In this document: positions 4,377 to 57,889 of the stretch, one piece after another
Layout of the letters: the number at the start of each line of letters is the position of its first letter
Position numbering within the stretch: the stretch's first letter is position 1
Notes under the pieces: generated by a model
Databases searched by the model: none
What the model saw: the letters and a program-made list of their open reading frames with translations, nothing else
Told to the model about the DNA's origin: nothing
Program-made: the position numbers and the translations under genes
Assembly (NCBI GenBank): GCA_964354805.1
Contig: CAYHBD010000016.1
Location: 64,001 to 128,000, forward strand
Direction of reading: 5' to 3'
Source of the DNA: an uncultured archaeon
GTDB taxonomy: Archaea; Iainarchaeota; Iainarchaeia; Iainarchaeales; GCA-2688035
DNA length: 64,000 nucleotides

Positions 4377-4458
4377 TCAAGCACAATGTTTTTTTTCCTT
4401 TTTTTTTGCAAAATTCAATTTTCCATTACTTTCAAGCGTAATAATATTTCTCCCTGTC
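4377..4458 (-). pseudogene. Two stacked degenerate copies of the ABCE1 3' end
   Basis: 4432-4458 reads DREKYYYA*; 4377-4410 reads KKEKKHCA*; intact gene ends DREQKEKGKYYYA*. Confidence 0.7.
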
Positions 4459-4498
4459 AATTGCTTTTCTTTTGCTTTCTTATCCTTCAATGCCTATT

Positions 4499-6283
4499 TC
4501 AAGCATAGTAATATTTTCCCTTTTCTTTTTGCTCCCTGTCAAGAACGCTGTCAAGTTTGTTCACTCTTGGCCTTTTGCTGTTCTTGTCCCTGCGCAGAGT
4601 AATCCCTAATTGCTGCAGCAGCCTGTTCATGCCCTCCTCCATTGAAAAAGGTCCTTCCGCTTTTCCGTTTCTTGCTGCTTCTCCCGAGAAAACCATTAAC
4701 CTGTCAGCAATGTAATCAAGGAAAAGCAAATCGTGGTCTACAATGAAAGCGCTTTTTCCCTTCACATCAACAACGCTTCTAATTGCCTTTGCAACAGCCA
4801 GCCTCTGCTCTACATCCAAATGCGCTGAAGGTTCATCCATTAAAATCAAATCGCTTTCCTTTAAAAGAGTTGAAGCAATTGCGCACCTTTGCAGCTCTCC
4901 CCCGCTCAATGTGTCAAGGCTTTTTTCCATTAATGCATCAATTGCGAGAGGCCTTATTACGTTGCTTTGCACGCCTGCATCGCTTAAATCAACTTTTTCC
5001 CGCAACAGCATTTCCTGTACTGTTTCCCTGCTTTCAACTGAAAGATACTGCGGTTTATACACGACTTTTAGATGCAAATCCACTTTGCAATTGTCCGGCT
5101 TTATTTCGCCTGCCAGCATTTTGACAAAGGTTGTTTTTCCTGTTGCATTGGGTCCTAAAATGCCAACCACTTCATTTCTATTAATGCTGTTTGCGTCAGC
5201 GTGCAATTCAAATCTGCCTAATTTTTTCCGCAAAGCAGGCCATTGCACTAATATGTCGCCATGCCTTGTTTTTTTGGCTTCCCTTTCGCTGAATTCAATT
5301 GCATATGACCTGAACCTGTAATTCTCTTCCTTGCTGTATCCATCCAGGTAAGTGTTTATTCCCTCTCTTGTTGTTTTCACCTGGCTCACTATTCCGAAAA
5401 CAGCAGGCTTCCCGTACATTAAGTGCACGAAATCGCTCAAATAATCAAGCAAAATCAAATCATGCTCTACAACGATTACGCTTTTCCCGCTTTCAGCAAT
5501 CTTTCTGATAAAAGCGCCAACATTCATCCTCTGCCTTATGTCCAGATAGCTGCTTGGCTCATCAAAAAAATAAACATCAGCTTCCTTTAATGCAGCTGCA
5601 GCAATCGCTGTCTTCTGCAGCTCGCCACCTGAAAGCTCGGAAACCTTCTGCTGCATTATTGGCTCAATCTGCAATTCAGCGGCAATTTCCCGCAATTTTT
5701 TCCTTTCATCAACCCTGCGCAGCAAATCAGCAACTCGTCCATGCACAATCTTTGGCAGCTTATCAACAGCCTGTGGTTTCACGCTTGCCCTTATTTTGCC
5801 TGCGCTCAATTTTTCAAAAAACGCCTGCTCTTCTTTTCCCCTGAAGAATTCAATCACTTTCTGCCAGCTTGGCTTTTCATCCGCTGTCCCAAGATTTGGA
5901 ACAAGCTCAGTGCTCAGAATGCGCAGTGCTGTTGTTTTTCCAATGCCGTTCTGCCCAACCAATCCAACAACATTCCCTTGCCTTGGCAACGGCAGCCTGT
6001 GCAGCCTGAACATATTTTTTCCAAAGCAGTGAACAGGCTGCTTTAGTGAAATCGACAAATTCACTATGCTGATTGCGTTGAATGGGCATTTTTTTTCGCA
6101 GATTAGGCAGCCTATGCACAAGTCCTCGCTGATGTTCGGCTTCTCGTTTTCAGCGTGTGAAATGCATTGCTTGGCTGCTCTGTTCACTGGGCAAACCTGC
6201 TCGCAAAGCCAATTCCCGCATTTTTTCGGATTGCATTTGTCATAGTTTATTACAGCAATCCTCTGCCTAATGTCCTGCTTCAT
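4499..6283 (-). CDS. rli: ABCE1/RLI ribosome-recycling ATPase
   Basis: N-terminal 4Fe-4S Cys motifs, two ABC domains (GQNGIGKTT, GPNATGKTT, LSGGELQ). Confidence 0.97.
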   Translation of the reverse strand: MKQDIRQRIAVINYDKCNPKKCGNWLCEQVCPVNRAAKQCISHAENEKPNISEDLCIGCLICEKKCPFNAISIVNLSISLKQPVHCFGKNMFRLHRLPLPRQGNVVGLVGQNGIGKTTALRILSTELVPNLGTADEKPSWQKVIEFFRGKEEQAFFEKLSAGKIRASVKPQAVDKLPKIVHGRVADLLRRVDERKKLREIAAELQIEPIMQQKVSELSGGELQKTAIAAAALKEADVYFFDEPSSYLDIRQRMNVGAFIRKIAESGKSVIVVEHDLILLDYLSDFVHLMYGKPAVFGIVSQVKTTREGINTYLDGYSKEENYRFRSYAIEFSEREAKKTRHGDILVQWPALRKKLGRFELHADANSINRNEVVGILGPNATGKTTFVKMLAGEIKPDNCKVDLHLKVVYKPQYLSVESRETVQEMLLREKVDLSDAGVQSNVIRPLAIDALMEKSLDTLSGGELQRCAIASTLLKESDLILMDEPSAHLDVEQRLAVAKAIRSVVDVKGKSAFIVDHDLLFLDYIADRLMVFSGEAARNGKAEGPFSMEEGMNRLLQQLGITLRRDKNSKRPRVNKLDSVLDREQKEKGKYYYA

Positions 6284-6394
6284 AGTAAAATAAGTTAAGG
6301 GAGTTGAACAAATAAATACCTTTGCCCTACTTTGGCTTCGGCTATTCCAGTTATTGCTGCTATTTAAGAAAAAGAAAAAAAGAGAGCACTGCTT

Positions 6395-55306: not shown

Positions 55307-55439
55307 ATCACTCTTCTTCCACTTCCACAGGAAATCTTTCCGCATGCGCAGCTGACAGCGGAAGTTTTCATAAGGAAAAAGCAGCGGAAGCCCGCTCTCT
55401 TCCAAGGGTGTTTATAATGAGAAAAAAGGGGGTTTTATT

Positions 55440-56708
55440 ATGGGTGTTGAGGAGTTAGACTTTGATTTATTCGAATTGCATGATCCAAAAGACGACAAAA
55501 AGCCGTATTTTTGGACGAAAATTGGAGGCAAAGAGATTCAATCACTATTCGAAGATTTAGTTAATAATATTTGTAAAACAAAAAATGTGAATAAAAATGA
55601 GCTGGCTAAAGAATTAAGCAAAGAGCTGGGTTGCTGTGTTTCACTTTTGCAAAAATATTTTTATTCCAAAAGGGATCTTTATCCAATCCCTTTAATCAAC
55701 CGATTACTAGACCTGCTTGAGAATGAAAATAAAAAAATGCAAATGAAAAGTTTATTTTCTAAAAAGATTGAATACTTAAAGATCGGGGGCTCTAGCCAAA
55801 GACAAAGGGCGGTTAAATATTTGACGCCAGAACAGGCAAAACTTTGCGGAGCAATTGTTGCCGATGGGTGTTTAGTAAAATCTAAAGTTGGAGAGCACGG
55901 GATTGTCATTAGGGATTATTACAAGAAAGCATTAGCAAAGACAAACGCTTGGTTCAACCAAGCCCTTGGCATTTCTTCTGTTGTGAGAAAGGACAAAGGG
56001 AAACCAAGCCATTTTCTAAAAATCGATAACAAAATTGCTGCAAATTTTTTTAACAAATTTTTTGAGATACCATTTGGAAAAAAATCAGCAATTGTTAAGG
56101 AACCACAGATAATTAAACATTCCCCATACAGGCTAGACTTTGCAGAAGGGGCACTTCTGTTTGATGGAAGTGTTGAGTTGGACTACCTGGTTTCCTATGG
56201 GACAATCAGTAAAAAGTTAGCAGAAGATTTGCTCGAAATTCTAACCCTAAATGGCTTTGAAATTGAATTAAGATATTTCAAAACAACTGGTCTGTATAGA
56301 TTACGAACTAAAAGATTAACAAGGGAGCAAACAGACAAATGGATTGCCTTTTTTGGCAAAGACACTGAGAAAGGCAGTAAGCTTTATCAAATGACTTACG
56401 GCTTTCCAAATAGGGTGGGCTCTGTGGGTTATTTCATGTTTGCAATTTCAAATTTCTGCAATTTTGCAAACAGTTCAAAGATTTCAATTAAAGACGTCTT
56501 CGCCGCAATAAAAGAAAATAATTGCGTAACAAAGGCGACTTTGAAAGATATTCTAAGAATTGGAACAAGCACTCTTTACAAATATTTATGGATCCTAGAA
56601 AAAACAAACTCAATCAAAGCTGAAAAATTTAATGGCGGTGAAAATAGAGAAAACAAATATTCTTACAATCCAAATATTTGGGAATGGCGTGCGCCATCAA
56701 AGCTTTAA
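55440..56708 (+). mobile_element. Free-standing HTH-LAGLIDADG-wHTH homing endonuclease gene (copy 2)
   Basis: AKLCGAIVADG and DFAEGALLFDG motifs; shares DLF.LHDP N-terminus, YP, EPQIIK and NP.I..W..P C-terminus with copy 1. Confidence 0.85.
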
Positions 56709-57889
56709 TGCTTAAGTAGAATCTTGATCACATCATCATATCGCAATTCATATTCGTCAGAAATTTTTTGGCCTGTTCTGCAATTGATGGCCCCCATATA
56801 CCTATCCAAAAAACTGCTGTGGACTTTGCCAGCTAAATCTTTTGTAGTGCTCCCTTTTTTCATTAGATATGCATCTGGAAGAACCTGCCCTTGCCCATTA
56901 GCCAGTTTATGCTGGTCCTCTACAGGATAAACAACAATCAGCTTTAGCAGTTCAAAAGCTGTTTTATTAATTGCCTGCTGAACCCCTGTGCTGCCCCAAA
57001 CATCCAGCATATGCGTTTGAATAAAGTCAAGCGCGTGCTTCTGCTGTTCATTCATGTTGCCCTTTGCACTAAACTCTTTCGCACCAGGAACATAATCAAT
57101 CAATCCAGTCCTTGCAGCTTTCCTCAGCGTTAACTCTGCTTCAGCGCAGCATGGCACAAAAATCTTTTCTGGGAATTCCTTTTTCAATTTTTCAAAGTTC
57201 TCTTTTGCCTGGGGCAAATCCATTTTGTTGCATGCAATCAGCATTGGCTTGCTCCTCTGCCTTATTGCTGACGCAAACCTAAGCACTTCCTCTTCATTCC
57301 ACTCGCTTGGCTTTGGGCCGAAATGCTCGCTTTCAAAAACATCTTTCACCTGTCCTTCACCCATTCCAAGCCCGCTTAACTGATCTGCAATCGGCTCCCA
57401 GGGCTTGCTGCTTGCTGTAGCGCCCTTGCTTATCTTTGCCCAGTTCTTTTCCAAAATCCCGCGCACCCAGTAATCAATCTCTTTCTCCAAAAACCTGACA
57501 TCGTTTGCAGGATCATGACCTTTTGCCGGATTTCCCTCTGCATCAGTTGTGCCGCTGCAATCCAAAACATGAATCAGTGCAGCTGCCTGCATTAAATCGT
57601 TCATAAACTGGTTGCCCAATCCCTTGCCCTGCCATGCTCCCTCGATCAATCCCGCAACATCCAGCAAAGTTGCGGGAATCAGCCGAATGCCATTCTCGCA
57701 TTTGCTGTTCTGGGGCATGCACTGCTTTCCAAACTCAGGGTGCACGCATTTTGCCGTAACATACCCAGTTCCTTGGTTCGGCTTTATTGTTACAAAAGGC
57801 CTGTTTCCAATCTCAGCATCAACAAGCGAGGCAGCGCTGAAAAAGGTAGTTTTTCCGGTGTTTGTTTTTCCAACAATTCCAATCTGCAT
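56705..57889 (-). CDS. ychF: YchF/Obg-family ATPase/GTPase (archaeal type, TGS domain)
   Basis: GKTNTGKTT, PF.TI.PN.G, DVAGL, GLGNQF, NKMD, VLPDA. Confidence 0.93.
   Translation of the reverse strand: MQIGIVGKTNTGKTTFFSAASLVDAEIGNRPFVTIKPNQGTGYVTAKCVHPEFGKQCMPQNSKCENGIRLIPATLLDVAGLIEGAWQGKGLGNQFMNDLMQAAALIHVLDCSGTTDAEGNPAKGHDPANDVRFLEKEIDYWVRGILEKNWAKISKGATASSKPWEPIADQLSGLGMGEGQVKDVFESEHFGPKPSEWNEEEVLRFASAIRQRSKPMLIACNKMDLPQAKENFEKLKKEFPEKIFVPCCAEAELTLRKAARTGLIDYVPGAKEFSAKGNMNEQQKHALDFIQTHMLDVWGSTGVQQAINKTAFELLKLIVVYPVEDQHKLANGQGQVLPDAYLMKKGSTTKDLAGKVHSSFLDRYMGAINCRTGQKISDEYELRYDDVIKILLKH

Follow-up and report, generated by a model that had tools for sequence, protein, structure and literature searches.

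Within the window (the whole stretch of 64,000 nt analysed here, G000:C16:64001-128000), two conserved genes of an uncultured archaeon, ychF and nre, each appear to have received a foreign 3' end together with a convergent, free-standing gene for a predicted LAGLIDADG homing endonuclease, and the native last codons of each gene lie stranded behind that endonuclease gene. Four other genes in the window, encoding ABCE1, a T2SSE (pilus) ATPase, RfcS, and a MiaB-like methylthiotransferase, are followed by short start-less copies of their own last codons. The first-pass annotation of this DNA had read all six as one system, in which an endonuclease inserts with a replacement gene end and is later deleted, leaving stacked tails. 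We consider it probable that two processes are superimposed here, namely homing-endonuclease cassettes at ychF and nre, and offset joining at gene borders, which would account for the short echoes. This explanation builds on the anatomy of the loci, the statistics of genome-wide scans, polymorphism among relatives, allele classes, and the fold of the endonuclease. G000 is a metagenome-assembled genome (MAG) of 1.38 Mb in 49 contigs with ~44% GC. The names under which near-identical proteins are recorded in databases assign it to Candidatus Diapherotrites, and DNA related to it was found in metagenomes of freshwater sediment and groundwater from several studies.

Endonuclease cassettes at ychF and nre

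Translation of the downstream sequence recovered a second, start-less and diverged copy of the last codons at six of six genes (Table 1), and Pfam confirmed the identities of all six host genes. The spacing of 48-73 nt first given for the four short pairs also agrees with the measured offsets. At nre and ychF, a LAGLIDADG gene lies between the working and the stranded tail, convergent with its host. The two are full-length paralogues (30% identity, E 5e-49), and their conserved W..P motif reaches to within 1 nt (nre) or 8 nt (ychF) of the host stop codon, as had been reported; on the nre side, the open frame extends across the antisense strand of the nre tail as far as 24172.

The assignment of both open reading frames (ORFs) to the LAGLIDADG enzymes holds by several lines of evidence. 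Pfam gave a weak LAGLIDADG_3 match for the ychF-side ORF (22.8 bits) and no match for the nre-side ORF, while a profile of the family run against PDB sequences matched PI-PfuI (E 1.5e-13), VMA inteins (~3e-11), and I-DmoI (~0.01). A 12-sequence alignment contains two LAGLIDADG motifs whose acidic residues are conserved, and it also keeps the C-terminal N..W..P. Motif 1, (L/I)(C/A)GAxAADG, has invariant G137, A138, A141, D142, and G143 (KLCGAIVADG on the ychF side, KIAGAHAADG on the nre side), and motif 2, GxLxF(D/E)(G/A/S), has invariant G237 and F241 (GALLFDGSV and GALTFEAGV, respectively). The AlphaFold2 (AF2) model of the ychF-side enzyme (predicted local distance difference test 89.9, predicted template modelling [TM] score 0.86) and its Foldseek matches display the two-fold pseudo-symmetric alpha-beta-beta-alpha-beta-beta-alpha core; the top 40 PDB matches are all LAGLIDADG enzymes, including PI-PkoII, PI-PfuI, I-Tsp061I, and I-DmoI, the last with a target-normalised TM score of ~0.69. 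By profile, motifs, and modelled fold, both ORFs are predicted to be monomeric, double-motif LAGLIDADG enzymes. Two distant, shorter LAGLIDADG relatives (336-358 aa) are also encoded in G000 (C35:83002-84078 and C18:205-1215), and similar forms of 310-400 aa occur in varied contexts in many genomes of the order.

The origin of the two kinds of tail was read from relatives. With the working tail of the closest relative, G012, the stranded ychF tail shares 79% identity, whereas the working ychF tail of G000 shares only 46% with that G012 tail and 64-68% with the tails of families f20 and f27. In bins of 28 residues along the gene, identity to G012 is ~0.8 until it drops to 0.57 and then 0.46 in the final two, where identity to G156 and G169, which belong to other families, goes up. 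For nre, identity to the endonuclease-free contig L121 is 0.93-0.96 upstream versus 0.53-0.76 in the 3' half, and the stranded nre tail and the nre tail in use in L121 match at 81% of nucleotides and end at the same stop; similarity of the nre cassette to G001 stops at 25567. From these comparisons, the stranded tail is evidently the native one and the working tail the imported one at both ychF and nre, in agreement with the earlier proposal of insertion with a replacement 3' segment. The accompanying idea that a new tail is recoded to resist cleavage finds no evidence in the short tail pairs, where the differences amount to ordinary synonymous divergence between allele classes circulating in related strains. 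As a separate observation on ychF, the G000 protein is 73-79% identical to those of G012, G006, and G009 and 44-47% identical to those of G001, G004, and G011 of the same family; two deeply diverged ychF types occur together in one family.

Occupied and empty alleles could be compared at nre. The relatives used were X5 (a sequencing run with a strain ~93% identical), L121 (a JGI contig), and L168 (a 216-kb JGI contig), and a metagenome search with nre returned only 3 loci. The nre cassette is missing in X5, L121, and L168, and its presence is thus polymorphic between strains ~91-93% identical. Polymorphism at a single site is combined here with mosaic flanks (the 3' half of nre and the last 60-80 codons of ychF), as in a homing element.

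Relatives of the endonucleases occur in 49 of 215 genomes of the phylum, with four strong matches in genus g50, and members of the family are found at ychF or nre, at the same position, in 10 other genomes of the order. Full-length copies form two host-specific sets, five convergent at ychF (with 11-14 nt of overlap) and six at nre, and the longer relatives L107 and L108 are convergent with a third gene. Convergent placement, which had been predicted for homologues, was seen at all 14 loci of the full-length or long type whose neighbour could be read. The two genes overlap there or lie no more than 27 nt apart; these loci are kin and not independent counts. Among the 215 genomes, the only hosts of the family are ychF, nre, and one or two further genes. 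Two family copies carry internal stops, as expected for a homing cycle.

It is quite unlikely that the LAGLIDADG-like ORFs are instead domesticated, immobile DNA-binding proteins of the WhiA kind, with the tail copies incidental to them. Such a role would fit the low ratio of nonsynonymous to synonymous substitutions (dN/dS ~0.09-0.2 among same-site endonuclease orthologues, over saturated dS), the conservation of extra N- and C-terminal helical domains in the ~420-aa enzymes, and the presence of WhiA among the fold matches. However, the presence/absence polymorphism between close strains and the patchy spread across the phylum speak for mobility, a foreign working tail and a native stranded tail exactly flank the ORF, and both motifs retain their catalytic acidic residues.

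Gene-end echoes across the genome

The short tail copies of the window turn out to belong to a genome-wide class. The last 10 residues of each of 1280 non-overlapping ORFs of G000 were compared with every downstream peptide preceding a stop, with a score of at least 28 taken as a tail copy and the expectation derived from permuted tails. Tail copies were found within 150 nt of 44 of the 1280 ORFs versus 0 expected and, within 3 kb, of 56 versus 2.5 expected. Chance is excluded for tail copies, and the duplicates exceed shuffled controls, a comparison that the first-pass annotation had named as a test of its claim. The same scan found 7 in 389 genes of G004 (same family, another genus) and none in the 190-353 genes each of the MAGs G010, G011, G013, and G020 and the single-contig genome G014. 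An assembly artefact is ruled out, given that these five genomes show none and that independent Logan, JGI, ENA, and NCBI contigs carry the rfcS, ATPase, and orc1 copies.

Gene ends are not the only sequences repeated in this way. Start-led echoes of the first 10 residues lie upstream of 21 genes versus 1.2 expected, at offsets of 36-65 nt, and scanning the nucleotide sequence gave 135 short-range, non-genic direct repeats. The offsets of these peak at 45-65 nt, and the repeats cover stops and starts as well as TATA-like boxes and hairpins resembling terminators. Across tails, starts, and intergenic boxes, the period is ~55 nt. Most short echoes have a length of 20-45 nt and fillers of 0-45 nt; the 44 tail pairs have a median repeat of 28 nt, a median filler of 31 nt, and ~85% identity. 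In ~28 of the 44, the edge of the repeat falls within -2 to +1 nt of the stop, which indicates that most pairs are not simple tandem units. Differences within pairs number 21, 25, and 51 at codon positions 1, 2, and 3; these nucleotide-ascertained counts were used in place of the protein-ascertained dN/dS of tail pairs (0.18), which was set aside as biased. Fillers have no shared motif and no mobile mini-element was seen in them, apart from a separate hairpin family in a few.

Between fillers of ~30 nt and cargo measuring 0.7-2.7 kb, intermediates are almost absent, and most cargo is something other than an endonuclease: long-range pairs hold an AAA_14/DUF4143 gene (82-nt repeat) or unknown ORFs. 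The AAA_14/DUF4143 gene (G000:C42:12048-13316; L154:549-1817) encodes a 422-aa ATPase with an Mrr-like C-terminus and is convergent with a 3472-aa gene, of which an 85%-identical, 82-nt tail copy lies 1.7 kb downstream.

These data bear directly on the claim that the four short pairs, and by extension the ~40 others, are scars of deleted tail-replacing homing endonucleases, which we now regard as very unlikely. The cassettes at ychF and nre have exactly the architecture that this claim assumes, the newest working tail of the ATPase is a diverged import ahead of older tails, and the two family members with internal stops are decaying in place. However, no member of the endonuclease family was found at ABCE1, T2SSE, RFC, or MiaB tails (29 family loci in the search of 215 genomes), and short scars are absent from all 28 ychF orthologues that lack an endonuclease. 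Intermediates between filler and cargo are as rare as stated, and other genes make up most of the cargo; heads and intergenic boxes are duplicated at the same period; and tails linked to an endonuclease share 43-52% protein identity, whereas short echoes share ~85% nucleotide identity.

Close strains allow several of the short copies to be read in more than one state. The ATPase gene has one tail in L123, where it is fused to the T2SSF start (TGATG), two in L168 and X5, and three in G000. The tail of the 75-nt unit found only in G000 differs from the next copy (19189-19215) at 6 of 27 positions (22%), four of them synonymous, while that next copy differs from the working tail of the relatives at 1 of 27 positions and is the working tail in L168. 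A recent local copy would be near-identical, so another allele is the source of the new ATPase tail; beside this tail, no anchor tract with signs of conversion can be seen. For orc1 (contig C9), a single tail of one codon class is present in L174-176 and one of the other class in L177, and G000 holds both, the working copy being of the L174-176 class and the stranded copy of the L177 class, with 8 of 8 differences synonymous. The stranded ABCE1 copy has TAT TAC, as does the single tail of three related strains, and the working tail of G000 has TAC TAT. At the ABCE1-pelota junction, strains 92-97% identical carry two different opposite-strand, two-gene cassettes of small ORFs (Table 1), and G000 has tail copies only. 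The rfcS copy is old; it is common to X5 and L168 and degenerate in L121. In L168, the copy and the working tail agree at every position over 25 nt between diverged flanks, which points to conversion. The MiaB copy is decaying, with 6-7 differences in ~30 nt between G000 and L168. Two further features of the ATPase border were observed: L123 has GGAGG inside the last ATPase codons (L123:955-985, corresponding to 19115-19145 of the window), and in G000 two extra tail units separate the ATPase and T2SSF genes, each opening with an ATG beside the preceding stop.

The short copies are best read as offset joints formed in exchange between diverged strains. A simpler account, local tandem duplication of ~50 nt by slippage or microhomology that is tolerated only across a stop or start, with the untranslated copy decaying, is unlikely for the class as a whole. 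It is favoured by the period-like spacing, by pairs that run 6-26 nt past the stop (C42 41169, C35 23664), by one relative in which a single 73-nt unit is precisely missing, with 4 nt of microhomology, by the modest third-position excess, and by the MiaB copy and the third ATPase tail, which decay as expected. Nevertheless, most pairs lose similarity at the stop, and the filler is unrelated to the sequence after the second stop; the ATPase unit specific to G000 shows 22% divergence despite its recent origin; and the orc1 copies represent two allele classes that are the working tails of different strains, distinguished by synonymous changes alone. In-place slippage is possible for part of the pairs. 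That the stranded copies are selected functional elements (for example, serving the downstream gene as promoter or ribosome-binding region, acting as a terminator, or ending a small ORF) is highly improbable. The last ATPase copy does contain GGAG and the TGATG overlap of T2SSF, the rfcS copy of L168 does match its working tail between diverged flanks, and the downstream gene is co-directional in 30 of the 44 pairs, but this share of 68% is close to the 63% of the genome, many copies decay, carry deletions, or lose their stop, and copies are present or absent among close strains. Diversity-generating retroelements, CRISPR-like off-target spacer integration, and att remnants were also considered, but the lengths of repeats and spacers vary, and no link to a reverse transcriptase, Cas protein, or integrase was seen.

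Proposed mechanism, related systems, and implications

For the cassettes, we propose a unit consisting of a foreign 3' segment of the host gene with its stop, followed by an opposite-strand endonuclease gene that abuts this stop. The enzyme would cut endonuclease-free alleles ~20-28 codons before the host stop, and repair would copy the cassette from the occupied allele, co-converting 60-200 upstream codons. The native last codons would be displaced to the far side of the endonuclease gene, where they form a dead tail, and host function would be preserved without an intron or intein. The short copies at ABCE1, the ATPase, rfcS, and MiaB would be part of the genome-wide set of 20-55-nt ORF-end echoes, at starts and stops and with a period of ~45-65 nt, that may mark offset joins of DNA from diverged strains at gene borders. 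One side of the incoming DNA would recombine by homology and the other would be joined illegitimately just past the end of homology (the stop or start codon), leaving two gene-end alleles in series, at times with cargo between them. The in-frame copy would work, and the other would decay, be deleted, or occasionally be homogenised by conversion. More tentatively, and short of what we would call probable, ORF borders in Diapherotrites may be a general entry point for foreign DNA, with endonuclease genes, toxin-antitoxin genes, ATPase genes, and bare allele fragments sharing one end-replacing route, in which a substitute gene end is brought in and the resident end is stranded. If this is true, ~65 or more echoes per 1.4-Mb genome would constitute a readable fossil record of inter-strain exchange, and endonuclease-made breaks near gene ends could be one trigger.

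Several points weigh against the explanation in two parts. We infer cleavage, the homing pathway, and the mechanism of joining from the patterns described above. Stranded tails in homologues, as had been predicted, are borne out in part: they recur in L092, L094, L103, and L104, and none was found within 1.2 kb in L093, L095, L096, L098, or L099. The strong purifying selection on the endonuclease ORFs also fits a domesticated DNA-binding protein. Among the echoes, only four short loci were comparable with close relatives; the second and third ATPase tails and the MiaB pair behave as simple duplication and decay; the codon-position counts are also compatible with in-place duplication and decay for many pairs; and selection alone is no explanation for the narrow period of 45-65 nt.

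The systems closest to the cassettes are the mobile ORFs (mORFs) with C-terminal duplication of fungal mitochondria, known from atp6 of Allomyces macrogynus and atp6, atp9, cox2, and nad3 of Glomus (PMC3630166) and from cob and atp6 of Endoconidiophora resinifera (PMC6279837). In both cases, a LAGLIDADG ORF (or GIY-YIG ORF in some mORFs) lies near the 3' end of a conserved gene, there is no intron or intein, and a foreign C-terminus is expressed while the native one, matching close relatives, is stranded downstream. The cassettes described here differ in that they reside on an archaeal chromosome (Diapherotrites) and target ychF and nre, in that the endonuclease gene faces its host gene tail to tail from the opposite strand, whereas mORFs are in phase or co-directional, and in that the enzyme is ~420 aa long with extra N- and C-terminal helical domains. 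The free-standing homing endonucleases of T4-like phages and cyanophages, which spread by intronless or trans homing, such as mobE and F-CphI (PMC2790892, PMC2988022, PMC6083498), are likewise free-standing genes between or beside conserved genes that spread by double-strand-break repair with co-conversion of flanks, but they are GIY-YIG, HNH, or EndoVII enzymes, are intergenic, and leave no duplicated stranded gene end. The archaeal intein and intron LAGLIDADG enzymes (PI-PfuI, 1dq3; PI-PkoII, 2cw7; I-Tsp061I, 2dch; I-DmoI) have the same fold and motifs and are the best matches, but they are embedded in a splicing element, of which there is none here, the host gene being kept whole by its replacement tail. 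Our search of the literature, which was not exhaustive, found no archaeal chromosomal report of end-replacing endonuclease cassettes.

For the short copies, the closest described processes appear to be insertion with long target duplication and homology-facilitated illegitimate recombination. Insertion with long target duplication was described for restriction-modification units in Helicobacter, Haemophilus, and others (PMC2853133). There, cargo without a recombinase of its own lies between direct repeats of >30 bp, of which the empty allele has just one copy; in some cases the repeat covers 3'-terminal gene sequence, and the species are mainly naturally competent; the process is bacterial, and no archaeal case survived the screen (PMC2853133). 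Direct repeats of >30 bp around inserts in G000 (82 nt in C42, 80 nt in C2, and 65 nt in C9) match in form. The repeats of long target duplication are near-identical, whereas in G000 the two copies are diverged alleles, and many pairs have little or no cargo. Homology-facilitated illegitimate recombination was reportedly observed in bacterial transformation experiments by de Vries and Wackernagel in 2002 and by Prudhomme et al. in 2002. A homologous anchor combined with an illegitimate joint would place two alleles of a gene end one behind the other; this process is not known to have produced ORF-end echoes across a whole genome.

The general view is that, to invade essential genes of cellular chromosomes, a homing endonuclease depends on an intron or intein. 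The cassettes would represent a splicing-free route in archaea by way of a replacement gene end, until now documented for fungal mitochondria. As they would carry gene segments between families and create chimeric housekeeping genes, they may mislead marker-gene phylogenies of DPANN archaea. Both enzymes also appear to have well-defined natural targets, with empty alleles in hand, and would thus offer directly testable new specificities. The echoes, in turn, could serve as a sequence-only map of recombination borders in uncultured archaea.

Features of the window and neighbouring insertions

Table 1. Gene ends, tail copies, and associated genes (positions in the window unless a locus is named)
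Feature	Position	Strand	Details
ABCE1	4499-6283	minus	working tail ..REQKEKGKYYYA, then stop
ABCE1 tail copy	4432-4461	minus	..IDREKYYYA, then stop; 67 nt stop-to-stop
ABCE1 weak third tail copy	4377-4388	minus	ends at 4377
ABCE1-junction cassettes in related strains	L163:11798-12309; L165:2760-3240; L166:1963-2145		one with UPF0175 antitoxin domain
T2SSE (pilus) ATPase	19262-21031	minus	working tail ..LFLLEGR, then stop, at 19262-19290
ATPase second tail	19189-19215	minus	..MFLLEGR, then stop; 73 nt stop-to-stop
ATPase third tail	19127-19145	minus	degenerate; overlaps T2SSF start (TGATG)
G000-only 75-nt unit	19216-19290	minus	working ATPase tail plus 46-nt filler; not in X5, L123, L168
nre	23010-24242	plus	Pfam Nre_N and Nre_C; working tail 24183-24242; mosaic 3' half
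Paralogous LAGLIDADG ORF	24244-25509	minus	convergent with nre
Stranded nre tail	25572-25634	plus	20 codons and TAG
rfcS	27370-28347	minus	tail ..AQFMRFKS, then stop
rfcS tail copy	27304-27330	minus	..AQFTRFKS, then stop; 66 nt stop-to-stop
MiaB-like methylthiotransferase	ends 30458	plus	tail FSTYLSGTVL
MiaB-like tail copy	30471-30500	plus	own stop missing; 48 nt offset
Stranded ychF tail	54847-54933	minus	28 codons and stop, no start; local alignment score 62
Double-motif LAGLIDADG ORF	55440-56708	plus	free-standing, 422 aa; convergent with ychF, stop codons overlap 4 nt
ychF-like GTPase gene	56705-57889	minus	Pfam YGR210-like_G4, MMR_HSR1, TGS; last ~60-80 codons apparently imported

The nre junction has been entered more than once. 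Directly behind the stranded nre tail, a low-GC (0.375) stretch at 25635-26562, missing in L121 and L168, contains an ORF of 264 aa (25710-26504, plus strand) with a weak Saf_2TM match, and this stretch is a second, separate insertion. L168 has a 296-aa ORF with no Pfam match on record between thrS and nre (L168:13236-14126) that is not in G000, and the thrS-nre interval measures 1118 nt in L168 versus 69 nt in G000.

A multi-copy family of hairpin repeats, with units resembling ..CCCAAGGCTTTTGC..GCAAAAGGC.., is present in the window at 29016-29190, 1840-1925, 967-1058, and 31464-31542. Contigs of four runs break at these repeats, their summed depth reaches ~540 in X3, and some tail-copy fillers include such hairpins.

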